From assembly GCA_003252295.1 (NCBI GenBank), contig QKEV01000003.1:64701-128700 (forward strand): 64,000 nucleotides of DNA, in the 5' to 3' direction. Within the stretch, counting starts at the first letter, position 1, and every line of letters begins with the position of its first letter. The translations under genes were made by a program, and so were the position numbers. The notes beneath the pieces are model-generated. The model worked only from the letters and a program-made list of their open reading frames with translations, did no database searches and was not told the origin of the DNA. Below, in pieces: positions 3,696 through 44,983 of the stretch. The DNA is from a bacterium. GTDB taxonomy: Bacteria > Patescibacteriota > Minisyncoccia > Phycocordibacterales > UBA12088.

Positions 3696-3769
3696 TGCCG
3701 GGGGAGAGAATTGAACTCTCGACCTTAGCTTTATGAGTGCTACGCTCTAACCAACTGAGCTACCCCGGC
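3696..3769 (-). tRNA. tRNA-Met (anticodon CAU; elongator-type G1-C72, could alternatively be Ile2/lysidine)
   Basis: The reverse complement folds as a cloverleaf: GCCGGGG acceptor, GCTC/GAGC D-stem, U33-CAU-A37 anticodon loop, GGTCG/CGACC-like T-arm with TTCAATT loop. No CCA is encoded. Confidence 0.8.
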
Positions 3770-3863
3770 ATTTGTAAGGGAGAGAGTAGCATGATTGTTA
3801 CAACTGTTCAACGTGATATTTATGGTAACTGACATATTTACTAAGAGTGATATACTACTATGT

Positions 3864-4049
3864 ATGGCACGAAGAAAGCTCGAAGAACGCAATATGCGAA
3901 CACTTTTTAAACTCGCTGGAGGAAAGAGTTTCGCGGTTACGATTCCTATCGATGTGGTCCGTAGCTGGGGTTGGCAAAACAATCAAAAGCTTAGACTCAA
4001 CATTGATGAGCAACACAAAAGGGTCATAGTAGAAGAATGGAAAGACTAA
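3864..4049 (+). CDS. AbrB/MazE/SpoVT-type swapped-hairpin DNA-binding protein (antitoxin-like), orphan
   Basis: MRTLFKLAGGKSFAVTIPIDVVRSWGWQNNQKLRLNIDEQHKRVIVEEWK resembles the AbrB-fold (KxGNSxxVTIPKExxExLGL...). No adjacent toxin ORF is evident. Confidence 0.5.
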   Translation: MARRKLEERNMRTLFKLAGGKSFAVTIPIDVVRSWGWQNNQKLRLNIDEQHKRVIVEEWKD

Positions 4050-4187: not shown

Positions 4188-4264
4188 GCGGTCGTAGCTC
4201 AACTGGTTAGAGCACCCGCCTGTCACGCGGGAGGTTGAGGGTTCAAGTCCCTTCGACCGCGCAA
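4188..4264 (+). tRNA. tRNA-Asp (anticodon GUC)
   Basis: GCGGTCG acceptor, GCTC/GAGC D-arm, anticodon stem CCCGC/GCGGG with loop CUGUCAC, T-arm GAGGG-TTCAAGT-CCCTT, discriminator G. Confidence 0.85.
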
Positions 4265-5639: not shown

Positions 5640-7037
5640 TTACACCCTCTCTCCTTTATAGTACTTTCCAACATGCTTTCTCCACGTTTCTGGTGTGACA
5701 AATTCAACTAATGTATCTTTATCATTGAAAACAGGTTCAACAGGGAAGGAAGATCCTGTGTAGTCTTGTCCGTACGTAGTAGCTTTTAACTGTTCTGAAG
5801 TTTCCTGTACAATGCCATCCTCACTGCCGGCATCACATGCGGTGACCACAATTTGAGGATTTGGCTCAAAGTAGCTCTTCATACGTTGAAGACCTGGCCC
5901 CCTCAGGTCTTCAGTTGATACGGTTGTCCATGAGTTTTTCTTAGTAAAAAATTTCTTTAGTAATTTTAATCCCGTGTCGTATTTTTCAGGACCAAATTGG
6001 ACACTGTTTTTTGTTCCATGTCCCGAAAACATGGCAAATGATATTTTATTATGATCCCCGTAGTGTCTGTCACATTCAGTGAGTCTGCGTCCAATTCCAA
6101 AAGCCCTGTCAATTTCAAACATGCGGAGTAGGTACCTGCCATCAAGATTTTTGTAGAGCTTTTTTGTGTCTGCCCATGTGCTTGAAGTGAGGGCACCACT
6201 GTGGTCATCTAGTGCAGAGAATACAACACCGTATGGTTTTTCAGTGTTATCAAAATTATCATACTGGTCAATCAACACTGTCTCTGGATATCGACAAAAA
6301 TCTCGTATACCAAACTCTTTCTGCAACATTTCGACAGAACCTGGACGAAGATGCTCCATAGTGCGCATGGTTTCAATATTTTTCATCATATTCCATACCA
6401 GTGACGCTTCATGACCTTCACCATATGCGTTCATCTTCCACTTACTGAGCGTGTCTTCGAAATCAAGACCAGATCTTTCAACGATCAGTTGCAACAATTC
6501 ATTTGCCTTCTCGGTTTTCTCGTTGACTTCATAATTTTCCCTGTCTTCGATTGATGAGAGTATTGCAGAACCTAAAATACTTTCATCTGAAACATTAGGG
6601 ATACGAAGCAGACTTGTTTTTGTTGGAACCTTGTCTGGAGTGACCAAGTTTTGTTCTGCTAGAGTTTTATAGAAAATACCCATAGTTTTTTCGTACAGTG
6701 GGGAGAAGGTACGAAGCGAAGGAGGTATTTCCAACTGTGCTTCGTCTGTGTAGGTTGCATGTGTGAAGACGTTGTACAGTAGTTGCTCAGCACGTTTTCG
6801 AACCGGATCATCCTTATCTTCAGTGTTGGCAATACTAAAAAGTTTTTCAGTATGTTGTGCAAGCTCATTAGAAGCATGTTCAAGCTTTTCTTCATCTGCC
6901 TCTTCGGCAGTACTAAGGATGTCTGAAATAGAGCACTGGAGTTCAGTGATCAAGGTGAGTTTCTCTGAATCACTTTCATGCACGGGTTCAGTGCTTACAA
7001 ATGATTCATTACTTGTTACTGACTCTAATGGATCCAT
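5640..7037 (-). CDS. Hypothetical cytoplasmic protein with putative clan-CD (caspase-fold-like) cysteine peptidase His-Gly / Ala-Cys dyad in the C-terminal half
   Basis: ...ISFAMFSGHGTKN... (hydrophobic strand plus His-Gly) followed 61 residues later by ...PQIVVTACDAGS... (hydrophobic strand plus Cys), the arrangement typical of caspase/gingipain/CHAT-type peptidases. The N-terminal ~300 aa are acidic and alpha-helical. Confidence 0.35.
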   Translation of the reverse strand: MDPLESVTSNESFVSTEPVHESDSEKLTLITELQCSISDILSTAEEADEEKLEHASNELAQHTEKLFSIANTEDKDDPVRKRAEQLLYNVFTHATYTDEAQLEIPPSLRTFSPLYEKTMGIFYKTLAEQNLVTPDKVPTKTSLLRIPNVSDESILGSAILSSIEDRENYEVNEKTEKANELLQLIVERSGLDFEDTLSKWKMNAYGEGHEASLVWNMMKNIETMRTMEHLRPGSVEMLQKEFGIRDFCRYPETVLIDQYDNFDNTEKPYGVVFSALDDHSGALTSSTWADTKKLYKNLDGRYLLRMFEIDRAFGIGRRLTECDRHYGDHNKISFAMFSGHGTKNSVQFGPEKYDTGLKLLKKFFTKKNSWTTVSTEDLRGPGLQRMKSYFEPNPQIVVTACDAGSEDGIVQETSEQLKATTYGQDYTGSSFPVEPVFNDKDTLVEFVTPETWRKHVGKYYKGERV

Positions 7038-7174
7038 GCATGTATTTTATCACGTGCGTACACGTTTTATATGTCAAAAAATGAGTGCTTCACAGGAAAA
7101 CCAAATATATACGCTAGACAACATTGTATTTGCGATAGGGGAAGGAAGAGTATAGTATTCCTGTAATTATATAT

Positions 7175-7732
7175 ATGCAGAAAATATCTAAGAAAGAAAG
7201 AATACTTCATGAAGCACTGAAACTGTTCGCGACCCAGGGTGTGGGAAGTACGTCGACCGCAGAGATAACAAAGAGCGCTGGTGTTGCTGAAGGAACGTTG
7301 TTTGTACACTTCAAGAATAAGCAGGCGCTTGTTGATGAGGTGTATCTGTACATTAAAAAACGAGAAGGTGAAGTGTTTGAAAAAGCTGTGACAGACGCAG
7401 CGACGGCGGAGGAGTTTGTTCGTACATTAGGTAAAACAGTAGTAAAACACTTTATTAAGAATTTCAACGAGCTCATTTTTTTGCAAAATGTTACCTTGCT
7501 AAAGTTAGTATCAAAGAGTGCACAAAAGGAAACAAATAAACATTTTGACATACTTCAGGAAAAGATGATGAGTTGGCAAAAGAAAGGGGATGTTAAACAG
7601 ATGGAGCCAGAAGTACTGCGTCGGTTAGTGTGGGCAATGTTCATTTCTCTCATACACTACTGTAAGACAAAAAGGATCGCTGTTACCAGTGAGCTGATAG
7701 ATCCGGTCTGGGATGCGGTTAGGGTTCGGTAG
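7175..7732 (+). CDS. TetR family transcriptional regulator
   Basis: N-terminal HTH ERILHEALKLFATQGVGSTSTAEITKSAGVAEGTLFVHFKNKQAL matches the TetR_N signature. Divergent from the 5640-7037 gene. Confidence 0.8.
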   Translation: MQKISKKERILHEALKLFATQGVGSTSTAEITKSAGVAEGTLFVHFKNKQALVDEVYLYIKKREGEVFEKAVTDAATAEEFVRTLGKTVVKHFIKNFNELIFLQNVTLLKLVSKSAQKETNKHFDILQEKMMSWQKKGDVKQMEPEVLRRLVWAMFISLIHYCKTKRIAVTSELIDPVWDAVRVR

Positions 7733-7834
7733 TACATAGCGATACCCATAACTGTCTGTATAAAATAGCTGATGAAAAATTGTAATCCACACCAGTAAGC
7801 GGTATGGCTACTCTTTGGTGAGTATACTAGTAGT

Positions 7835-8617
7835 ATGGATGAATCAATAACACAGGAACCACAGCCGGTGGTGGTAAAGAAAAAAACCTGGAAAGACAAG
7901 ATTGCTAAGACTACAAAATTATCAAAAGCGCTGACACTCGTGCTTTTTGTGATACTACCTATTTTTGGTTTTTGGTTGGGTTCTGTATTTACTTCAGTTC
8001 ATCTTGAGTATGTGCATAGCTGTGAATCTTGTGAAATGGAACTTATTGGTTGCAGTCTTCAAAACCAGCAAGAGAAAATGAAGGTACGTGAGACGATGAG
8101 TCATCCGTTGAGTTTCATTGGCGTGAGTGAGGATACCAAAACTTGGATACCGGTTATTTCAGATGATGCCTCAGGAGCAAATATGCAGGTGGTAAGTGCA
8201 AATGGTGTTCGATCAGTAGCGCTTGAAGGGGAACTGTGGCGTTCAACAATATACTATAACTGTGGTGATGAGTTACCAATCAATCCATTTGAGATCTATA
8301 AGACAATGTTTCTTGCACATGGGTGGGGTACAGATGTTGTGACAGGCAATAACCTGAGTGTGCGAGCGATCTTTGCAGATGGGCCACTGGGGAGTGCTGA
8401 AGGTTATGTGAAGGTGAGTGGTGACACAGTTCAAGCAGTGAAGTTGGGCTATAACAAGGAGTATTTTAATACCTGCGAATATAAACCAGATGATCCAAAC
8501 AGTACCTGCCCGTTGTATGAAAAGATGTGTCCACTGAACATAGAATTTGAAATTTTTGTGAGTGATGTGTATCCGCTAGAGAAGGTGTACGATAAGGTGG
8601 GAGTTATAGAACAGTAA
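7835..8617 (+). CDS. Hypothetical membrane-anchored extracytoplasmic protein (Cys-containing)
   Basis: Lys-rich N-terminus, then TM (ALTLVLFVILPIFGFWLGSVF), then a ~200-aa domain with 8 Cys. No family motif recognised. Confidence 0.4.
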   Translation: MDESITQEPQPVVVKKKTWKDKIAKTTKLSKALTLVLFVILPIFGFWLGSVFTSVHLEYVHSCESCEMELIGCSLQNQQEKMKVRETMSHPLSFIGVSEDTKTWIPVISDDASGANMQVVSANGVRSVALEGELWRSTIYYNCGDELPINPFEIYKTMFLAHGWGTDVVTGNNLSVRAIFADGPLGSAEGYVKVSGDTVQAVKLGYNKEYFNTCEYKPDDPNSTCPLYEKMCPLNIEFEIFVSDVYPLEKVYDKVGVIEQ

Positions 8618-8640
8618 TTCCTTTTCGGTTTATATAACAT

Positions 8641-8898
8641 ATGACCTCGTTTCGTAAAAGCGTACTCCGTGTGGTACGTGGTATTCCAGAGGGCGATACA
8701 CGTACGTACAAGGAGGTTGCCATAGCAGCAGGGAACCCGAAGGCAGCTCGGGCAGTTGGTGCTATTCTCAAAACAAACTATGATCCAACTATTCCATGCC
8801 ATCGTGTTGTAAAAAGTGATGGTACGCTCGGTGGGTATAATAGGGGGGTGGGTACAAAAAGGAAGCTTTTAGACGAGGAATCACGTTTAAAACAATGA
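8641..8898 (+). CDS. Methylated-DNA-protein-cysteine methyltransferase DNA-binding domain protein (MGMT/Ogt C-terminal domain only, active-site PCHRVV present)
   Basis: IPCHRVV active-site motif plus a helix-turn-helix-like region (YKEVAIAAGNPKAARAVGAIL). Only ~85 aa, so there is no N-terminal domain. Confidence 0.7.
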   Translation: MTSFRKSVLRVVRGIPEGDTRTYKEVAIAAGNPKAARAVGAILKTNYDPTIPCHRVVKSDGTLGGYNRGVGTKRKLLDEESRLKQ

Positions 8899-8977: not shown

Positions 8978-9466
8978 ATGAAGATTAAACACTACCTCTT
9001 CGCATTGCTTTTTGCGTTCGTGCTTGCACCAGTTGTAGCACAGGTTGCCAATGCAGAAGATGAACTAACTCTTGAGTCATTGAATGACACCATTCAAGAC
9101 CTTCTCGCTAGAGTTGAAACACTTGAAGGAGACCTTGAGGATGCGAATAACAAAATTGCTGATCTCGAAGACGAGCTAGCAAGCATCGATACATCTGCTG
9201 TTGTTGGCGATGATGACGACGATGATGACGACGATGATGATACTTCATATCGTGGTTACAACAAAGCAGCACCAGGAACAGGAAATGTTGCTGTTTGCCA
9301 TAACGGTAAGACGCTACGTGTAAACGTGCGTTCTGCTCTTAACTACAAGAGTAACGGTGCAAAACTTGGTACCTGTGCTTTTGACGACGATAGTAGCAGT
9401 GATGATGGTGACGACGATGATGATGACGACGATGATGATGATGACGATGACACCACTGAAGAGTAG
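8978..9466 (+). CDS. Secreted protein with signal peptide, coiled-coil segment and two poly-Asp tracts flanking a 2-Cys core
   Basis: Signal peptide MKIKHYLFALLFAFVLAPVVAQVANA, heptad-like acidic helix, D11 and D20-like runs encoded by (gat/gac)n, and the central segment VAVCHNGKTLRVNVRSALNYKSNGAKLGTC. Confidence 0.6.
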   Translation: MKIKHYLFALLFAFVLAPVVAQVANAEDELTLESLNDTIQDLLARVETLEGDLEDANNKIADLEDELASIDTSAVVGDDDDDDDDDDDTSYRGYNKAAPGTGNVAVCHNGKTLRVNVRSALNYKSNGAKLGTCAFDDDSSSDDGDDDDDDDDDDDDDDTTEE

Positions 9467-9956: not shown

Positions 9957-9987
9957 AAAAAGCGGTACATGTTGTACCGCTTTTTAT
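9957..9987 (+). terminator. Rho-independent terminator
   Basis: aaaagcggtacatgttgtaccgcttttt. Confidence 0.7.
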
Positions 9988-10712
9988 GTATGTATATGAA
10001 AATAATCACTTTAAACATTGAAAGAAATCTACATCTTGAAAATGTTAAAAAATTTATCGAGTCTGAGAACCCGGATATACTATGTTTACAAGAAGTTATG
10101 GAACCTGCGTTTCATAATTTGTGTGGTACTGAAAAAATGTATGGTTCATTTACCCCCTTTGCTATCCTTAGGGAATGGGGGGAAACTTGTGACAACGAGA
10201 TGATGGGTGTGGCAATACTCACTAGGGAACCACACACACTTCTTGGAACACACTACTACCAAGGATCAAAAGAACACCCGAAGGAATTTATGAAAGACAT
10301 GGAAGTAACCATGACAACAAGGAGGTGCTCGCGTGCAGTACTGGCTGTTGAATACAACGGTACGGTAGTGGCAACAACACACTTCACGTACTCATTGCAA
10401 GGTGTTCCTGATGCAGCATAGGGTGTGTCACTGCAGAGAATGTTAGAGCTCACTAAACCTTACAAAGATCTGGTGTTTTGTGGAGATTTCAATATACCGA
10501 GACCAAACAAGTACTACCAGCAGTTACGTAGTACGTTTACTGATAATGTTCCTGAACAATACTTGTCCTCGATAGATCCAGATTTGCATCACATAAAAGG
10601 TTTACAAAAAATGGTTGACTACATATGGACGAGAGGAGTGTGTAAGGTTACCAATGTACATTTTAAGAATGGTGTTTCTGACCACCTTGCTCTTATTGGA
10701 GAAATTATCTAA
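9969..10712 (+). pseudogene. Endonuclease/exonuclease/phosphatase (EEP) family protein interrupted by an in-frame TAG at 10419-10421
   Basis: The two ORFs 9969-10421 and 10425-10712 are in the same frame. The N-part (ITLNIERN...LCLQEV) and C-part (GDFN...SDH) together form one EEP domain. The only disruption is the single TAG (…VPDAA*GVSLQ…). Confidence 0.6.
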
Positions 10713-20534: not shown

Positions 20535-21413
20535 ATGAGTGAAGAAACAGAAAATAGGATCAAGGAGATAGAGTACCTCATGTGTCAGTCAGATTTTTGG
20601 AAGGACTCAGAAAAGGCACAAGGACTCATCAGTGAGTTGCAAGACCTCAAGACACTTGCCGAGGGTGGTACGCCATACGATAAGTTGCGTGCTGTCGTCT
20701 CTATCTATGCTGGAGCAGGAGGTGACGATGCGGAAGACTTTGCTGGTATGCTCTTTCGTATGTACCAGAAATACGCAGAGCGAAAGGGATGGGTATGGCA
20801 TCTCCTGCATGATCATGAGAATGACCACGGTGGTTATCGAAACCTCTCTTTTGAGGTGGAGGCAAAAGGTGCCTATGGTGAACTGCGGCATGAGTATGGG
20901 GTGCATCGTCTCGTGCGCATTTCACCCTTTAACTCAAATGCAAAACGTCATACCAGTTTTGTACTCGTCGAGGTGCTACCGGTTATTGAGAAGAAGCAGT
21001 TAGATATCCCTGAAAGTGACCTCGAAGTATCGTTTGCAAAGTCGAGTGGTCCAGGAGGACAGAATGTGAACAAGCGTGAGACTGCTGTCCGTGTTGTACA
21101 TACACCAACAGGTATTTCAGCATACGTGCATGGTGAGCGCAGTCAGAACGCAAACAGGGAGAAGGCACTCACCATTATAGAAGCAAAGCTGGTACGACGC
21201 CTAGAAGATGAGCACAAGGAAAGACTTGAAGAGCTATCAACCGATCCTGGGAAAATAGAGTGGGGAAGCCAAATACGTTCCTACGTACTCCATCCATACC
21301 AAATGGTAAAGGATCATAGAACAGGTACAGAAACAGCTAAAATAGACGATGTTTTGGAACGAGGAGACCTTGACGTATTCATAGAAAGTGCAAAAAATAT
21401 CGACACACAATAA
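20535..21413 (+). CDS. prfB: Peptide chain release factor 2 (short form, no programmed +1 frameshift site)
   Basis: GGQ motif SGPGGQNVNK, SPF tripeptide RISPFNSNAKRHTSF (RF2-specific), and C-terminal GWGSQIRSYVLHPYQMVKDHRTG. Only 20 nt separate it from the upstream stop, so there is no room for a frameshifted leader. Confidence 0.85.
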   Translation: MSEETENRIKEIEYLMCQSDFWKDSEKAQGLISELQDLKTLAEGGTPYDKLRAVVSIYAGAGGDDAEDFAGMLFRMYQKYAERKGWVWHLLHDHENDHGGYRNLSFEVEAKGAYGELRHEYGVHRLVRISPFNSNAKRHTSFVLVEVLPVIEKKQLDIPESDLEVSFAKSSGPGGQNVNKRETAVRVVHTPTGISAYVHGERSQNANREKALTIIEAKLVRRLEDEHKERLEELSTDPGKIEWGSQIRSYVLHPYQMVKDHRTGTETAKIDDVLERGDLDVFIESAKNIDTQ

Positions 21414-24876: not shown

Positions 24877-25881
24877 ATGACATCAAAGTCGATAATCCGC
24901 CGTATGGCGGTGTTTGTTTTTATAGCGGGGACCGCATTCTTTGCCGGTATCTTGTTTTCTGAGGATTCACTGCATTTTGAACCTGCAGTTGCAGATGCGC
25001 AGGAAACTGATGTGGTTGCTGATACTACAACAAATGAAGAACCTTTAACTGCTAGCACTACTGAGCAGAGTGCGACAAGTACAGGAGAGAGTTCTATTCT
25101 TGATTCAACACTTATTGAGGTTTTGAGTACACCAAAACAGGATCTCACAAAACCAGAACTTGATACTGAAAAGGATGAGATACAAACACTCCTTGAGAAA
25201 CGCCAGGTTGAAAAACCAGGATTGTTTACCTTTATTGCCTACTGGGTACAGAAGGCAATAGCGCTTGGTATTCCTGCAAATACTATTGTACTCATTTTCC
25301 TTATACCAGTTATCGCAACACTCATTACTTTCGTGCGAGTGGTCATTGGTTTGCCTGCACTTGAGATGATGGTACCTATCGTACTCTCATTTGCTTTCGT
25401 TGCGGTTGGAATTACTGCAGGACTCATTATTTTGAGTGCAGTCATTTTGGCCTCCTTTGTTTCCCGTACACTCCTGCGCAAAGTGCCTATCATGTACTTC
25501 CCGAAACGTTCTCTCTCACATCTCTTTCTTGCCTTCTTTGTGTTTGGAGCACTTACGATTGCTATCATTCTTGATTTTCAGTCAATTCGTGAACTTTCTA
25601 TCTTCCCAGTACTCATTCTTACCCTCCTGGGTGACTCTATTGTGTCTGTACAGTTGAGGAAGACGGTGCGAGAGACAATTGTTATCACTGCGGTAACACT
25701 CGGTCTTGCGCTCATTGGTTACCTGCTTGCAACAAGTGTTCTCGTGCGTGATCTGGTGATACTTTGGCCTGAACTGATACTTATAACAGTACCTATTAAT
25801 TTCCTTCTTGGACGTTACTTTGGTCTACGACTTTCTGAGGTATTCCGTTTTAGAAGTCTCGAAGCGTATGCCCGTAAGTAA
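24877..25881 (+). CDS. Polytopic (about 7-TM) membrane protein, first gene of the ATP-grasp/protease module
   Basis: N-terminal anchor, acidic/Thr-Ser-rich linker, then about 7 hydrophobic helices. Its stop overlaps the next gene's start by 14 nt. Confidence 0.55.
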   Translation: MTSKSIIRRMAVFVFIAGTAFFAGILFSEDSLHFEPAVADAQETDVVADTTTNEEPLTASTTEQSATSTGESSILDSTLIEVLSTPKQDLTKPELDTEKDEIQTLLEKRQVEKPGLFTFIAYWVQKAIALGIPANTIVLIFLIPVIATLITFVRVVIGLPALEMMVPIVLSFAFVAVGITAGLIILSAVILASFVSRTLLRKVPIMYFPKRSLSHLFLAFFVFGALTIAIILDFQSIRELSIFPVLILTLLGDSIVSVQLRKTVRETIVITAVTLGLALIGYLLATSVLVRDLVILWPELILITVPINFLLGRYFGLRLSEVFRFRSLEAYARK

Positions 25882-27223
25882 ACAAGCACTCGGGATGAAT
25901 GCCCGAAATTATCTCTACATACGCCCGAACAATAAACCTCGGGCAAAGGAACGTGCTGACAGTAAGTTGCTCACGAAAGAGCATTTGGTGAAGAAGAAGA
26001 TACCTACCCCTGAGCTCAAAGAGGTGTTTCGAACACATAGGGATGTTCGTGACTATGACTGGACCAAGCTCAAGGGGAGCTTCGTGTTGAAGCCTGCTCG
26101 TGGATACGGTGGTGGCGGTATACTCGTTGTACGAAACTGGAATGGAGAACAGGGAAGACGACTGGGGAGTAAGCCAATTACAAAAGAAGAGCTTGAAGCA
26201 GAGATATACAGTATTTTGGACGGTGCGTATTCGCTCAACAATCTTCCTGACATTGCTCTAATAGAGAAACGAGTAATTGTGTCTAGCACTATGCGTAAGT
26301 TGAGTAAAAAGGGTGTACCAGATATACGGGTCATTGTGTACAACAAGGTTCCTGTTATGGCAATGCTTCGATTACCAACTAAATACTCGAATGGATGTGC
26401 GAACTTGCACCAAGGAGCCATGGGTGTTGGTATCGACCTGCGCACGGGAATAACCACGAAAGGAGTCCTGTTTGGTTTTGATGAGAAACACATACCAGGT
26501 ACCAAAACAAAAGTGCGAGGTATTAAAATTCCTAAATGGAGCAAGGTGTTGAAGTATGCTGTACAGGCACAGAAGGCGTCACGTCTCGGGTATGCAGGTA
26601 TAGACATTGTATTTGATGAAAAACTTGGCCCATTGGTACTGGAGGTGAATGCTCGTCCGGGACTTCAGATACAGTTAGCGAATGGTGATTCACTTCGTAC
26701 CCGCCTTGAGCGGGTTGAGGGAATGCATATTCCTTCTATTGAGTACGGTATTGATCTCGGCAAACGTTTGTTTGCGGAAAAGTCATTGAGTGATATAAAC
26801 GTGAAGAGTAACGTCCTTAAGGTTCGTGAGCCGGTTGTCATCTATGGTCCAAAAGGGAAGAAGAAGATTACAGCCAAGGTAGACACTGGTGCCTACAGTA
26901 CTTCAATAGATACGGCACTTGTAGAAGAGTTGGGGTTGAAGAAACATCCACGACAGAAGCTTGTTCGTACTGGGTTTGGACCAGAAGAGGTGCGTGATAG
27001 GGTGCATGTTGTATTTCGTCTTCATGGTATGGATATTGAAACCGATGCTTCAATCACCGATCGCTCACACATGCGTTATCCTATGATTATTGGTCGTCGT
27101 AACCTAAAAGGTTTCTTGGTTGATCCCAAGTACACACCAACTGATGAAGAGAAACAAAAACGTTTAGAAAGAAAAAAAATAAAAGAATTAGAAGTTGGTA
27201 AAGAAGAGACAAGTGATGAGTAA
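25868..27223 (+). CDS. Fusion protein: RimK-related ATP-grasp ligase (alpha-L-glutamate ligase-like) N-terminal domain plus retropepsin-like aspartic protease (DTGA) C-terminal domain
   Basis: ATP-grasp features (LKPARGYGGGGILVV; GVGIDLRTG; EVNARPGLQIQ) and a C-terminal ITAKVDTGAYSTSID...MIIGRRNL clan-AA protease signature. Confidence 0.65.
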   Translation: MPVSKQALGMNARNYLYIRPNNKPRAKERADSKLLTKEHLVKKKIPTPELKEVFRTHRDVRDYDWTKLKGSFVLKPARGYGGGGILVVRNWNGEQGRRLGSKPITKEELEAEIYSILDGAYSLNNLPDIALIEKRVIVSSTMRKLSKKGVPDIRVIVYNKVPVMAMLRLPTKYSNGCANLHQGAMGVGIDLRTGITTKGVLFGFDEKHIPGTKTKVRGIKIPKWSKVLKYAVQAQKASRLGYAGIDIVFDEKLGPLVLEVNARPGLQIQLANGDSLRTRLERVEGMHIPSIEYGIDLGKRLFAEKSLSDINVKSNVLKVREPVVIYGPKGKKKITAKVDTGAYSTSIDTALVEELGLKKHPRQKLVRTGFGPEEVRDRVHVVFRLHGMDIETDASITDRSHMRYPMIIGRRNLKGFLVDPKYTPTDEEKQKRLERKKIKELEVGKEETSDE

Positions 27224-28094
27224 AAAAAAGATACGTATAGGAGTTATATCACGAGTGCAGAGTGATACGATTGATTTAGCATTGAAAAAAGAAGCAGAGA
27301 AACGTGGTCATACGTACACAAAAATTGTCTTTTCAACCGAAGATGTTACAGATGCAGAAAATATTTTGACTCAAGCAGGATTGCTTGAGTACGACGTGTT
27401 GTACTACAGAACATCACTTGGATATGTTTGGGCGCAGGTAATTGAGGCGTACTTGTCTAAACACAAAAAAGAAGCTTTAAATTTGCAATACATTACACAT
27501 GCCTTTCTTGAGAAGAAGACATATCAAACAGCAACAGTTTCTAGAGAAAATGTATTAACTCCAAAAACTGTTCTAGATACCTCAAACGATTTTAAAACTA
27601 TTGCATCAAAACTTGGAAGTCCTTTTGTTGTTAAGGCCGATGTGAGTTCCCAGGGTAGAGATGTTCATTTAGTGCATTCGGAAAAAGAGTTTATGACAAC
27701 CTCTTCAAAGAGTCTGAGGAAACCATGTTTTTACCAAGAATACATACCACATGAGTATGATTGTAGGGTACATCTCGTAGGTGGTAAGCCAGTTGCTTCA
27801 TATAGGAGAGTGCCAAACAGTGGTGAGTTTCGAAGTAATGTGAGTCTCGGTGGAAGGATGGAAGCTTTGAGTAATGAAGATAAAAACGCACTCTACCCTT
27901 TAGCAGAGCAGGTTGCTAAAATTCTTAATCTTGATTTGCATGTGGTAGATTTTATGCGTTCAAAAATAACTGGGAAGTACTATTTTACTGAAGTAAATTC
28001 AAATCCAGGTTGGAATAAATGGAATCCAAACGCAACCGGAGTAAATATGAATTCCTTAGTAATGGATTATTTTGAAGCATACGCGAGGGGTTAG
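27216..28094 (+). CDS. RimK-like ATP-grasp ligase (ribosomal protein S6 glutamate ligase family)
   Basis: SPFVVKADVSSQGRDVHLV, CFYQEYIPHEYDCRVHLVGGK, FTEVNSNPGW map to the ATP-grasp B and C subdomains. The start overlaps the previous stop. Confidence 0.7.
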   Translation: MSKKKIRIGVISRVQSDTIDLALKKEAEKRGHTYTKIVFSTEDVTDAENILTQAGLLEYDVLYYRTSLGYVWAQVIEAYLSKHKKEALNLQYITHAFLEKKTYQTATVSRENVLTPKTVLDTSNDFKTIASKLGSPFVVKADVSSQGRDVHLVHSEKEFMTTSSKSLRKPCFYQEYIPHEYDCRVHLVGGKPVASYRRVPNSGEFRSNVSLGGRMEALSNEDKNALYPLAEQVAKILNLDLHVVDFMRSKITGKYYFTEVNSNPGWNKWNPNATGVNMNSLVMDYFEAYARG

Positions 28095-28112
28095 TAGTGA
28101 TACTATTACCAT

Positions 28113-29450
28113 ATGTCTGAAAAATTTCACCAATCCTTTGAAGAAACAAGTGTTGCGCAACAAGAGGTTTTAGATGCCGATTTGTATACTGCTTTTGAAA
28201 AACTGTTTTTTGAGGATTATGAGTACCTTGAAGGAGACAAAAGGGAAAGAGAAAATCAGAAAAAAAGTTTTTTTGAGAATGAGATCGAGAATCCTGTTCT
28301 TGATTACCCCTTACTAGAGAACTTTGATTTTGAAACCAGAGAGAGTGAACTAGTAGCACTTAAAGAAACTGCACTGCAACATAGCGACCCGGTAGTTACT
28401 CAGGTGTACAGGTGGAGGATAAATGAACAAATTGCTCAGTTAAGGATGTTAAGGGCAGCAAAAGAGGGGAACGACAGGCGTTTTGGAAGGTACTCAAGGT
28501 TTATATATGGGACACCTTCTGAAGAAATATTTCAGTATGATCTGAGTAAGGTAAGAGGGGTTGTTGAGGTTGCGCAAAGATCGGGTGATGATGAGAGAAT
28601 AAAGGCGTCAGAATGGCTACTGGAACATGTAGATCTCAATAAGGTTGATACTGCAACAATCAGTGATGGTCTTCTCAAAAAAGAAAAAGATACCACTGAG
28701 AAACTGAATGCAGAGCAAATTCTTGAACTGTTTGAACAAGCAATTGCAACATTGCAACTTACTGACTGGAAGGTTGTTACTGATGAGAACAGAAGAACGG
28801 TGAGTGCAAGCCAAGAGCAAAAAACAGTATATCTGCCAAAAGATATCTCTCGAACAAAACAAAAAGTCGAGTCACTCATTGCGCACGAGTTAGGTACCCA
28901 TGCACAAAGAAGAGAACATGGAGAGAGGAGTAAACTGAGACTCCTTGGTTTGGGTCTAGATAGATACGTGAAAGGTGAGGAAGGGGTTGCAACATATGAG
29001 CAGCATAAGATTGAGGGAGCAGATGAATATGCGGGTTTCTTGGGACATCTTGCTGGGTCACTTGCACATGGCGTTGATGGGACAAAAAGAAATTTCAGGG
29101 ATGTGTTTGAAATATTGTGTCAGTATAATATCGCACGAATAAAAACCTCAACAGGAGAAGATCGGGTAAAAAAGGCAAAAGATGCTAGTTGGAATACATG
29201 CGTAAGAGCTTTCAGAGGTACCACTTGCACTTCTCCAGGTAATGCGTTTACGAAGGATATTGTGTATCGAGAAGGGAATATTGGTGTGTACGACCTCATT
29301 AATGCAAACAGTAATGAGGTGCACCGTTTTATGGTTGGCAAGTATGACCCGACAAATGATAGACATGTGTGGGTACTTGACCAGCTTGGTATTACAGAAG
29401 AAGATATTGAGCGTCTAGAGAAGGGTGAAGAAGTAGCTGACGAAACATAA
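28113..29450 (+). CDS. DUF1704-family (MATCAP-like) zinc metallopeptidase with atypical HExxxH motif
   Basis: IAHELGTHAQRREHGE (H-E-x-x-x-H) and the conserved downstream segment ...GEEGVATYEQHKIEGA.... Adjacent to the RimK-like ligases, as in the described conserved neighbourhoods. Confidence 0.6.
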   Translation: MSEKFHQSFEETSVAQQEVLDADLYTAFEKLFFEDYEYLEGDKRERENQKKSFFENEIENPVLDYPLLENFDFETRESELVALKETALQHSDPVVTQVYRWRINEQIAQLRMLRAAKEGNDRRFGRYSRFIYGTPSEEIFQYDLSKVRGVVEVAQRSGDDERIKASEWLLEHVDLNKVDTATISDGLLKKEKDTTEKLNAEQILELFEQAIATLQLTDWKVVTDENRRTVSASQEQKTVYLPKDISRTKQKVESLIAHELGTHAQRREHGERSKLRLLGLGLDRYVKGEEGVATYEQHKIEGADEYAGFLGHLAGSLAHGVDGTKRNFRDVFEILCQYNIARIKTSTGEDRVKKAKDASWNTCVRAFRGTTCTSPGNAFTKDIVYREGNIGVYDLINANSNEVHRFMVGKYDPTNDRHVWVLDQLGITEEDIERLEKGEEVADET

Positions 29451-41787: not shown

Positions 41788-44700
41788 ATGGAAGAAGATA
41801 AACATATAAATATAGTTGGGCGCGTGAGTCACTTCTTTACGACACATAGACCGCTCTCTGTACTCTTACTCATTACCTCACTCGTTTTCGGGATAGTGTC
41901 ATTCTACCTTACGCCGAAGCAGTACAATCCTGAGATAAAACGTCCTGCCTTTGCTATATCACTCGACTACAGTGGTGCAACGATACAGGAGTCACTCGAT
42001 AGGGTGGTGTATGAGATGGTGGAGAAGGTGGGTACCGTGCCTGGTGTTGATGATATCTATACGCAAGTCACTGATGGATCGCACATTGTCACAACAGTCA
42101 TCTTTGAAGTGGGGTATGACACCACGAAGGCGAAGGTGGACCTCACGACACAGCTCAACCAGCACAGCTACCTTGCACGTGGCTTCATATCCGTACCAAG
42201 CATCATCGAGATAAACCCGGAGACGGTCCCCGTGCTTCAGGTGGTCTTTGGGTCTCCTACACTCACGCTCACTGAACTACGTGAACGTGTTGTTACGCTC
42301 TCACATGCGCTCACGCAAATAGAGAACGTCAGTGAGGTGTCTGTGACCGGTGCGTACAGAGAGGTGCTCAAGGTGGAGGTAGATCCGGCAAAGCTCTTAG
42401 CGTACAACCTCACTGTTGAGGAGGTTGCACAGGTGCTCACGAGTAGTCAAAACAGGACAGTGCAGAACGGTGTGGTGAACGACGAGTACCAAATAGAGAT
42501 AGTCTACGACGCTCGCGCTAATTCTCCCGAAGAAGTGGGGTCTCGTGAAGTGAGGAGTGGTGTCCTCGTGCGTGACGTTGCTCATGTATACGTGGGAAGT
42601 AGTAACGGACGTTCGTACGTACTGCATACGAGCAAAGAGAGTGGTACACAGAGTGAGGTGGTCATGCTCTCTGTTGCAAAAGTGGAGGGTTCGAGTGCTC
42701 CTGTTGTGACGAGAGCTGTGCAGGACGAGATAGAACTACTACTCGAGCAAGATGCGTACGCCGGTGTGGAATATCGAGTAGTTGGTGATGATGGTAAAAC
42801 AGCATCAAATGCCATTAACGGTCTCACACAAAACCTCATTACCTCTATCGTGATTGTGGCATTGGTACTCTTCCTCTTTCTCTCGGTACGAGCCGCACTC
42901 GTGGTCTTGGTTGCTATACCGGTCACACTACTCATTGTCTTTGGACTCGGCTACCTCTTTGGAGAAACGATTAACCGTATCACCCTCTTTGCACTCATCC
43001 TCTCTCTCGGTCTCCTCGTAGACTCTGCGATTGTGGTAGTTGAAAACATATACAGTCATTTGAAATATGCTCACGGTAGCGCATCTCCAAAGAATCGAGA
43101 AAAGGTAATAGCACATGCGGTGCATGAGATAGGGGTCGGTCTCTTACTCTCAACGGTCACCTCGGTTATCGTGTTTCTCCCGATGCGCTACATCACCGGC
43201 ATGATGGGACCCTACATGGGACCGATAGCGTTCTTCGTTCCAGCTGCACTCATCATTTCTCTCTTGGTAGCAATCGTAGTGACGCCGTTCATTGCCTCAC
43301 ACCTCTTGAAGGGGGAGGAGAAAGAGACTCGTTTGAGTCGTGCTGTGAATAGGTACGTAGAAAAGGTGACCAGTTTTTACACTCGAGTCCTCACAGCTAT
43401 AGTACACAGTAGGAGCAACCAAAAGAAGCTGCTCCTTGGGGCACTCATGCTCTTTGGTGTATCACTCCTCTTGCCGCTCTCTGGGTTAGTGCATTTCCAG
43501 ATGCTTCCACGTGCTGACCAAGATCAGTTTTACGTGTACTACGATGGTCCTACCGGTACGTCAGTAGAACGTACGAAGGAGACGACTACTCGTTGCGTAC
43601 TTTTCAGAGTATGAAGCAGTGGAGAGTATACAGAGCTTTGTTGCTACAGCACCAATACTTGATTTCAATGGACTCTTTAAGGGTGCGCAAAATAGGAGCG
43701 CTGCAAACCAGTCGACACTCCGTGTGAACATAACACCGAGCGATGAACGGAGCTTGAGTTCAAGTGATGTGGTGAGTGACCTGCGTCACCTGCTCAAAGC
43801 AACGTACCCTGAGATTGCAGAAGACGTGCAGTTTATTGAGGAGCCACCTGGTCCACCGGTTCGTGCAACACTCGTTGCAAAGGTACTCAATGAGGATGAG
43901 GATGTACGTAACCACTTTGCCAATGCACTTGCAACGTATATGGATACACGCGAAGGAGTAGAAGATGTTCACGTGCAGCGGGATGATGCGACGGGACGCG
44001 TAGTGTATACACTCAACCATGACGCACTTCGTGAGTATGGGGTAACGCAGAGTGCTGTAGAGAATATGCTCACCCTCATGCAGAGCGGTATTGAGGTGTC
44101 AGAGTTCTCCTCAGCACGGTCTAATGAGTACAGTCCTGTTATTTTGTCACTCGGGTATGCTGACCGTTCAGCACCATCGAGTATCGATACACTGTACGTG
44201 AGGAGTGGTACGGGAACACTCATTCCACTTTCGTCGGTAGTAGACATTAGCTACGAGGAGCGTCCTTCTGTTGTGATGCTCGAGGATGGTCTCCTTACGA
44301 CCTACGTGACCGCTGAGGTGGAGAACAGGTCTATTGTGTACGTTGTCATAGAACTCATGCGAGGACTCATTACTGGCGATGTTCCTGGATACAAGGTTAC
44401 TGATTGGGGGCTGTTCTCACTCACCCTTACGGATGAGGACGGGGAACAGGTGCAGCTTGTCTGGGGTGGTGAATGGGAGATGACGCTCGAGAACTTCCGT
44501 GATCTCGGTATAGCTATGGGTGTTGCTCTCATGCTCGTCTATGCGGTCTTAGTGGCACAGTACAATCGCTTTGCGACACCTGCTTTCATACTGGTCACGG
44601 TACCACTCGGGCTTGTGGGCATACTGTGGGGTTTTCTGGTGCTCGATACGGTGTTCGGTGTTTACCTCACTGCTACGGCACTCATTGGCTTTATAGCGCT

Positions 44701-44983
44701 CATAGGACTCGTGGTGAACAATGCCATTATCTACCTTGAGTACGTTGAACAGGCACAGAACGAAGGCGCTGCTTTTAGAGATGCGCTTGTTGAGGCAGGG
44801 CGGGCACGGTTGCGTCCAATCGTACTCACTTCGTTCACTACTATTCTCGGAAGCTTAACGATAGCAGGTGACCCGGTATGGTCGGGGCTCGCATGGGCGA
44901 TCGTGTTCGGTCTTTCACTTTCGACAGTACTTACGCTCGTTGTGTATCCGACTTTGCTCGTCTTCTTCACTAATAAAGATTAA
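41788..44983 (+). pseudogene. RND family efflux transporter (AcrB/CusA-like) split by a 1-nt frameshift near 43585-43590 (ORFs 41788-43614 and 43619-44983)
   Basis: The N-ORF covers TM1, periplasmic loop 1, TM2-7 and the start of loop 2 (...LPRADQDQFYVYYDGPTGTSVERTKETT). The C-ORF continues loop 2 in another frame (...AYFSEYEAVESIQSFVA...) through TM8-12. The combined length of ~1060 aa is that of a single RND protein. Confidence 0.65.

Follow-up and report, generated by a model that had tools for sequence, protein, structure and literature searches.

A probable stand-alone clan CD cysteine peptidase from a large bacterial family related to DUF4347/Tce1 and C80

Clan CD of the MEROPS classification groups proteins built on an α/β/α sandwich, in which the catalytic histidine (usually in a His-Gly pair) follows strand β3, the catalytic cysteine follows β4, and the histidine precedes the cysteine in the sequence. 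This fold is common to caspases, legumain, gingipain, C11, C80 and separase, and the proteases of the clan act like switches; examples are caspases and separase, toxin domains that process themselves, and effectors that type III and type VI systems secrete. C80 domains autoprocess after a leucine at their N-terminal domain boundary within a large toxin, and their active site is gated allosterically by a β-flap and a basic cleft for inositol hexakisphosphate (InsP6). This ligand binds on the other face of the domain, away from the active site, and a lysine six positions before the catalytic histidine is among the residues that contact it. Among the effectors, Tce1/PA0256, a DUF4347 protein, and Tce2/PA2372 of Pseudomonas aeruginosa resemble the TcdB protease domain and are encoded without an immunity-like neighbour; the toxicity of Tce2 depends on its active site, and Tce1, a putative type VI secretion system (T6SS) protease effector, carries an N-terminal extension before its C-terminal protease domain (PMC13323088). 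The Shigella effector OspB (H144/C184) needs InsP6, like TcdA, TcdB and RtxA, and autoprocessing of TcdA requires D589 besides H655 and C700 (PMC9239218). Here we describe the gene of a putative protease in a 64-kb stretch of contig QKEV01000003.1 (the window, 64,000 nucleotides in all). On sequence comparison and predicted structures, its product is probably a cysteine endopeptidase of clan CD that is catalytically active. The family to which it belongs is large, lacked a model until now and is allied to DUF4347/Tce1 and C80; the protein is most probably soluble, cytoplasmic and stand-alone.

In the initial annotation, the motifs SGHG and ACDAG, 61 residues apart, had been read as the diagnostic arrangement of clan CD within a putative caspase fold. 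Translation of the open reading frame (ORF) and of its sub-ranges indeed confirmed both motifs and the 61-residue distance from His340 to Cys401 (Table 1); an identical protein is already on record from an NCBI contig. The AlphaFold2 model of the full-length protein, built from a 147-sequence alignment, reached a mean predicted local distance difference test score (pLDDT) of 88.9 and a predicted template modelling score (pTM) of 0.89, and that of residues 226-465 reached a pLDDT of 93.2. For residues 263-465, the models predict an α/β/α sandwich with high confidence. As assigned by DSSP, β1 (269-275), α1 (282-298), β2 (303-309), α2 (312-326) and β3 (332-338) lead to G-H340-G, which is followed by a short hairpin, a low-confidence loop (350-372; pLDDT 61-62 for residues 351-370), α3 (381-389) and β4 (390-399); after A-C401 come α4 (409-417), β5 (420-424) and C-terminal hairpins (434-460). 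In both models, strand 332-338 ends directly before G339-H340-G341 and strand 390-399 directly before A400-C401. The order of elements along the modelled sequence is thus that of the caspase/hemoglobinase fold, with the histidine after β3 and the cysteine after β4, as the clan CD proposal had it. The modelled part before residue 263 is helical, comprising N-terminal helices 21-46, 49-70, 78-92 and others (pLDDT ~90) and pre-domain helices 173-188, 193-202, 209-230, 234-242 and 252-260. The N-terminal 300 residues had been described as acidic, helical and without a recognised match, which agrees with a pI of 4.5 for residues 1-262 (51 D+E versus 25 K+R), with the model and with the searches of Pfam, NCBIfam and all Protein Data Bank (PDB) chains (phmmer), where the query returned noise only. 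A cytoplasmic location without a signal peptide is likewise supported, as no hydrophobic N-terminal or transmembrane-like segment was found in the query or in 154 family representatives when the hydrophobicity of 15- and 19-residue windows was inspected.

Foldseek comparison with the PDB upheld the caspase fold: for both models, the best 50 matches were all clan CD proteins, nearly all of them peptidases. The full-length model matched best with the protease domain of the Vibrio cholerae MARTX toxin (3gcd; E 1.3e-2), and after it came caspase-11, legumain, the caspases 3, 6 and 7, a C11 peptidase and separase. With the domain model, caspase-11 (6ns7) was best (E 2.8e-5, probability 1.00), ahead of asparaginyl endopeptidase (AEP)/legumain (7e-5), the GPI transamidase subunit PIGK (1.5e-4) and C11 (2.7e-3), and the caspase-like domain of Raptor was also returned. 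In the viral structure library BFVD, the significant matches were mostly caspases and metacaspases of giant viruses, and generic Rossmann-like helicases matched only at E>1e-2. The presence of legumain-type ligases (6l4y, 6lko, 5h0i, 9vsx) and PIGK (7wld_K) among the best matches, at E 7e-5 to 3e-3, would fit an enzyme that catalyses acyl transfer instead of hydrolysis, whether as a transamidase, a peptide ligase or cyclase (like PIGK and the plant asparaginyl ligases) or, alternatively, a deacylase. We regard this as quite unlikely. These matches reflect the common clan CD core, and the scores of caspases equal or exceed theirs; such sequence links as the family has are weak and point to DUF4347/C80, not to C13; and no precursor-peptide or partner gene is conserved nearby.

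Conservation argues for an active peptidase. In a MAFFT alignment of 154 sequences and a second alignment of 147, the sole columns invariant in both were G270, E308, H340 and C401. H340 was present in 154/154 sequences and C401 in all 153 that reach the column, the homologues being at most 41% identical to the query; next to them stand D278 (153/154), G339 (143/154), G341 (150/154) and G404 (152/153), and about 25 further positions are conserved in at least 90% of the sequences. Within the catalytic domain, R305, Y326, K331, D377 and S414 are near-invariant. The pre-domain (residues 180-262) is as strongly conserved as the catalytic domain, with near-invariant W200, N220, E228, G233, L238, F242, G243, I244, F247, R249, Y250, L255 and Q258. 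At 14 additional metagenome loci, the histidine and cysteine were kept in every covered member, with GHG in all but one, which has GHA, and even the very divergent member at locus L007, which reads ...ASDSHALG... and ...LNACSLG..., retains both. The invariant histidine and cysteine, together with the flanking glycines and D278/E308, form a pattern typical of an active site under selection. It is therefore scarcely credible that the motifs are fortuitous or that the domain is dead, a Raptor-like scaffold acting only through its helical regions. Such a reading could draw on the Raptor pseudo-caspase (6zpn_B) among the structural matches and on the deviation of the query from the family consensus around the cysteine; invariance of His and Cys that extends to very divergent members disposes of both chance motifs and a dead domain.

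The family was revealed by an exhaustive HMMER search of 1.84 billion cluster representatives (clusters at 50% identity), which returned at least 1,110 homologues at E ≤ 1e-3; of these, 791 reached E ≤ 1e-10 and 52 reached E ≤ 1e-30. This search was needed because a word-indexed search found six relatives only, and three with the domain profile. Nearly all matches span query residues ~180-440; the N-terminal region is also matched only by P0008 (41% identity), P0002, P0009 and P0017, and the median length of family members is 515 amino acids. An NCBIfam scan of six homologues gave no match. A GTDB scan with the single query protein was also negative, and a scan with a 7-sequence alignment gave 3 loci, in metagenome-assembled genomes (MAGs) labelled Saccharibacteria or Saccharimonadales and in one labelled 'uncultured Gammaproteobacteria'. 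No second family copy was found in the window by hidden Markov model (HMM) scan. In the literature on Saccharibacteria/Patescibacteria combined with clan CD or caspase-like proteins, we found nothing relevant. A sizeable family without a database model is thus defined, with its catalytic residues and a family-specific accessory module, and many 'hypothetical proteins' of poorly understood bacteria gain an annotation. The residues H340, C401, D278 and E308 offer a tractable entry to regulated proteolysis in small-genome, host-dependent bacteria. What is new is the family; the fold and chemistry are already known, and no new principle is involved.

Individual members deserve mention in their own right. 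One metagenome contig (L019) carries two tandem family paralogues (4-732 and 990-1979), the second of which reads IIDAHG where the family has IIGGHG. The L007 member (7167-8789, in a Saccharimonadales MAG) keeps the helix motif EFGIRNFARY and has lost most other family motifs. At the P0017 locus (L025, L026), the neighbours encode MutS, V/A-type ATPase subunit D, adenylosuccinate synthase and isopropylmalate/isocitrate dehydrogenase. The carrier of P0017 may accordingly be metabolically richer than typical Saccharibacteria, and on these neighbour genes the family may extend beyond the Saccharibacteria lineage.

We further asked where the family belongs within clan CD. A Pfam scan of 46 domain sequences at a lax threshold detected DUF4347 in 8/46 (best E 1e-3) and Peptidase_C80 in 2/46 (5e-3), and no further clan CD family among the matches. 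In particular, Peptidase_C14 matched neither the query nor any of the 46 members, CHAT (PF12770) was absent from the Pfam scans of query and members, and Peptidase_C80 (PF11713) matched neither the whole query nor its domain. A further link came from the full-length homologue P0020 (E 1e-37 to the query), which matched DUF4347 with 25.0 bits (E 1.8e-5; profile positions 14-149 of 164), only slightly more than the 24.6 bits of the gathering score of this model (PF14252); a phmmer search of the PDB with the P0020 domain gave no match. When the family profile was compared with 9qpe_G, the PDB chain of Tce1, listed as 'DUF4347 domain-containing protein', hmmsearch (E 0.96) placed GGHGTKDSIQFG on ATHGTAGQLWLG and LVSCSTG on LYGCDFAG. 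A search with a fragment of Tce1 returned near-identical sequences only. The protein is best described as a separate family on the DUF4347/C80 branch of clan CD; the query does not itself reach the Pfam threshold for either DUF4347 or C80.

Several points weigh against an active endopeptidase of this branch and are better taken together. The query matched no clan CD HMM at all, whether it was scanned whole (E ≤ 1) or as residues 226-465 (E ≤ 10), and because it lacks a DUF4347 match of its own, its link to that family is transitive, through relatives only. Profile-profile support for DUF4347 is weak: hhalign paired the family alignment with a Tce1 fragment, histidine on histidine and cysteine on cysteine, at E 1e-3 and a probability of 21%. 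The Foldseek template modelling (TM) scores are 0.33-0.43 with large root-mean-square deviations, and only the core superposes; given these modest scores, we hold the claim at the level of fold and clan, not of family. Clan CD moreover includes transamidases, ligases and inactive domains such as Raptor. Finally, the query departs from the family consensus beside the nucleophile (ACDAG for SCSTG) and elsewhere (Q for P424, A for K312, S for N280), and its activity or specificity may therefore differ from those of mainstream members.

Compared with the described families, the query family is closest in sequence to DUF4347/Tce1, through P0020 above threshold and the weak matches of 8/46 domain sequences. 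In the weak profile alignments, the GHG and the catalytic cysteine pair up, with the histidine before the cysteine at a distance of 54 residues in Tce1 versus 61 in the query, and both have an N-terminal extension, a C-terminal protease domain and no nearby immunity gene. Unlike DUF4347/Tce1, the query family possesses its own 83-residue helical pre-domain (EFGIxxFxRYP) and the invariant Glu308, and its genes show no association with T6SS or Hcp. Its members come from uncultured bacteria with small genomes, whereas DUF4347/Tce1 occurs in Proteobacteria.

With C80, the family shares the clan CD fold, the MARTX domain being the best match of the full-length model, and an Asp...His...Cys series (D278/H340/C401 versus D589/H655/C700 in TcdA). 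Because the Asp-to-His spacing is 62 residues in the query and 66 in TcdA, we infer by analogy that D278/H340/C401 is the equivalent of the TcdA series. K331, conserved just before the histidine strand, resembles TcdA K649 and TcdB K647 of the InsP6 site. The differences from C80 are these: the query is a stand-alone protein of 465 amino acids, not part of a giant toxin; its family has no invariant leucine at the boundary between variable and conserved regions (residues ~173-190); and in the query 61 residues separate the histidine from the cysteine, compared with 45-49 in C80 and 40 in OspB. Saccharibacteria live as epibionts, and their hosts are bacteria, which would be without InsP6; labelled relatives of the query lie in Saccharibacteria MAGs, which again sets the family apart from C80.

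Caspases (C14), legumain and GPI8 (C13) and C11 peptidases are the best structural matches of the isolated domain. Like them, the query carries the histidine after β3 in (S/G)-H-G, the cysteine after β4 preceded by Ala or Ser, and a flexible loop between the two. However, the query family has no HMM similarity to these families, the p20/p10 organisation and dimerisation are without support, and the QACxG pentapeptide of caspases is absent (TACDAG in the query, SCSTG in the family). The residues near the pocket are conserved as acidic and not as basic, which makes specificity for aspartate unlikely. Separase (C50) also combines a large helical N-terminal region with a C-terminal caspase-like protease on which it packs, and separase chains (5fc3_B, 5fby_A) appeared in the full-length Foldseek list with probabilities of 0.2-0.3 and TM scores of 0.15-0.17; there is no sequence similarity, and the likeness is architectural only.

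These comparisons suggest how the enzyme would work. The thiolate of Cys401, activated by His340, would attack the peptide bond to form an acyl-enzyme, which would then be hydrolysed. Asp278 would probably serve to orient the histidine, the role proposed for D589 of TcdA, or else form part of the S1 pocket. Conserved acidic residues lie at the strand-end side of the sheet (D278 after β1, E308 at the end of β2 and D377 before α3), and their placement suggests an acidic S1 environment, which would favour a basic residue at P1; a metal site is another possibility. The pre-domain (180-262) and the N-terminal region (1-179) are predicted to pack with the protease into one compact body, as the high pTM indicates, and the helical N-terminal modules would most likely select the substrate or gate activity. 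The region before residue 180 is hypervariable across the family and conserved only in the P0008/P0002/P0009/P0017 subfamily. In mainstream members, it gave profile matches to designed armadillo/helical-repeat proteins and Pumilio repeats (E to 8.5e-9), which may be partly compositional, as these regions are rich in E, K and L.

Two further features might regulate the enzyme. The loop 350-372 is indel-rich and gapped in most homologues, with R or K at position 367 in 101/148. Since C11 peptidases autoprocess between the histidine and the cysteine, this flexible, Lys-rich loop is a candidate autoprocessing or regulatory loop. On the face that would lie opposite the active site, conserved basic residues on α2 and at the starts of β2 and β3 (R305, K312, which is A in the query, R317, K/R324, K/R325 and K331) form a cluster. 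By analogy with the InsP6 site of C80 domains, this cluster may form an allosteric site for a polyanion.

The genomic surroundings indicate that the gene acts alone, not in an operon or a known defence system. It is monocistronic and convergent with a 202-residue ORF of no assigned function. A divergently transcribed TetR-family regulator had been noted beside it and is indeed present (Table 1). This neighbour is absent beside family members at all other loci examined, and we rejected it as a conserved partner; the association appears incidental. The 137-nucleotide intergenic region towards the TetR gene holds no convincing operator palindrome, and promoter and terminator matches within it did not exceed shuffled controls. 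In an all-against-all comparison of the window and 18 other loci, no neighbour family was common beyond chance: an RluA-type pseudouridine synthase recurred in three distinct loci and L19 in two. BLAST of the window neighbours against three loci found only a cupin in common, with L004, and the window cupin is 54% identical to one on a Saccharibacteria-labelled contig.

These surroundings bear on the suggestion of the initial annotation that the protein could be an effector or part of a defence or abortive system. As a protease arm of anti-phage defence or abortive infection, it would resemble the CHAT or caspase-like proteases that accompany type III CRISPR, cyclic-oligonucleotide-based anti-phage signalling systems (CBASS) or gasdermins; CHAT domains usually occur together with TPR or sensor domains or in a defence setting. 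We consider this very improbable, as only the general precedent of bacterial caspase-like proteases in defence speaks for it. No model of PADLOC-DB 2.0 matches the protease, CHAT and Peptidase_C14 HMMs find nothing in it, and no sensor or partner gene is conserved across the 19 loci, where the neighbours are housekeeping genes. No family relatives were found in phage and plasmid collections (tblastn) or among the viral contigs of IMG/VR (scan). On these negative phage, plasmid, IMG/VR and PADLOC searches, the defence or mobile-element reading was rejected.

The effector half of that suggestion stands as a possibility only through analogy with the relatives of the family. In such a case, a probable small-genome symbiont would deliver the protease into its host by a non-Sec route for the cleavage of host proteins, in the manner of OspB, Tce2 and the C80 toxin domains; its hypervariable N-terminal region would serve adaptation to host targets or to delivery, and the proposed enzymology would be compatible with such a function. 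The nearest known relatives are protease domains of effectors or toxins, the N-terminus varies strongly across the family though it lacks a signal peptide, one contig carries tandem paralogues, relatives occur in MAGs labelled Saccharibacteria/Saccharimonadales, and no immunity-like neighbour is conserved, as for Tce1/Tce2. We nevertheless treat a translocated effector as possible but doubtful. At none of the loci is the gene linked to a secretion signal, a chaperone or a secretion-system gene, and its neighbours are housekeeping genes; a bacterial host would lack the InsP6 that C80 enzymes use as cofactor; and the conserved module is C-terminal with a variable N-terminus, the opposite of polymorphic toxins. 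A more specific version, of lineage-specific, ligand-gated effectors of the C80/DUF4347 type in small-genome bacteria of the candidate phyla radiation (CPR) type, we judge unlikely. If it were true, the pre-domain and the basic patch (α2, K331) would sense a polyanion of the host cell or of the cell state, much as C80 toxins sense InsP6, and this signal would switch on the cleavage of specific proteins, of the host or of the bacterium itself, in the course of an epibiotic or parasitic life cycle. In this part of the tree of bacteria, the family would then be the first class of protease effectors, and it would form a counterpart, directed at prokaryotes, of the InsP6-gated toxin proteases.

Table 1 Positions in the window of the peptidase gene, its predicted parts and the adjacent regulator gene
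Feature	Position	Strand	Basis and remarks
Protease gene, complete, 465 aa + stop codon	5640..7037	(-)	ATG-start ORF; homologue of clan CD cysteine peptidases, stand-alone
Variable acidic helical N-terminal region, residues 1-179	6501..7037	(-)	match ranges, model helices
Helical pre-domain, residues 180-262, motif EFGIxxFxRYP	6252..6500	(-)	family-wide conservation
Catalytic domain, residues 263-465, predicted caspase/hemoglobinase fold	5643..6251	(-)	model DSSP + Foldseek
Asp278, loop after β1 (PxxD-H/W-NGAF)	6204..6206	(-)	candidate third catalytic residue or S1 residue; conserved 153/154
Glu308, C-terminal end of β2 (LRIxE)	6114..6116	(-)	154/154; candidate S1 pocket or salt-bridge residue
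β3 + His motif ISFAMFSGH340G, residues 332-341	6015..6044	(-)	family consensus KISFAIIGGHG
His340 codon	6018-6020	(-)	translation of sub-ranges; general base, predicted
Loop residues 350-372 (PEKYDTGLKLLKKFFTKKNSWTT), Lys-rich	5922..5990	(-)	between His and Cys; candidate regulatory/autoprocessing loop
β4 + Cys motif IVVTAC401DAGS, residues 396-405	5823..5852	(-)	family consensus PTIILxSCSTG
Cys401 codon	5835-5837	(-)	translation of sub-ranges; nucleophile, predicted
TetR-family regulator, divergent	7175..7732	(+)	Pfam TetR_N E 1e-15, TetR_C_10 E 3.9e-7; context only

Elsewhere, the window encodes GH18, PilB, MacB/HlyD, prfB-ftsE-ftsX, pyrG, M29, S41, PhoH-PIN and DUF5671 proteins; taken with the cupin, this gene content would fit a small-genome lineage related to that of the Saccharibacteria-labelled contig. 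The release-factor gene (20535-21413, (+); PCRF and RF-1) begins at PCRF profile position 95; the missing N-terminal part probably lies upstream in a different frame, as in prfB with its programmed +1 frameshift. The genes ftsE and ftsX come next, and the same order of the three genes is found a few kb from P0008, the closest homologue, in locus L008. An AcrB transporter of the resistance-nodulation-division (RND) type is split over two adjacent ORFs, 41788-43614 (+) and 43619-44983 (+), in different frames, which cover ACR_tran positions 2-579 and 596-1020 of 1021; a frameshift, a pseudogene or an assembly error could account for this, as could a gene that is truly split. A four-gene cluster at 24877-29450 (+) is of the peptide-modification type and encodes a 7TM_transglut membrane protein, an ATPgrasp_ST-Asp_protease_2 fusion, a RimK-like ATP-grasp protein and a MATCAP-like protein of the tyrosine carboxypeptidase family.

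Closer to the protease gene lie several small ORFs. The ORF at 8641-8898 (+) encodes an 85-residue, stand-alone DNA-binding/active-site domain of O6-methylguanine-DNA methyltransferase (PF01035, E 1e-28; PCHRV) without the N-terminal domain. That at 8978-9466 (+) encodes 162 residues with a signal-peptide-like N-terminus, a coiled-coil-like segment, poly-Asp runs of 10 and 14 and no Pfam match. The 150-residue ORF at 9969-10421 (+) covers only positions 2-80 of 225 of the Endonuclease/Exonuclease/phosphatase profile and may be truncated or frameshifted. A small ORF at 3795-4049 (+), with no obvious toxin partner, has a sub-threshold match to MazE/AbrB-like antitoxins (22.3 bits versus a cut-off of 24.7) and is flanked by tRNA genes at 3696-3769 (-) and 4188-4261 (+).

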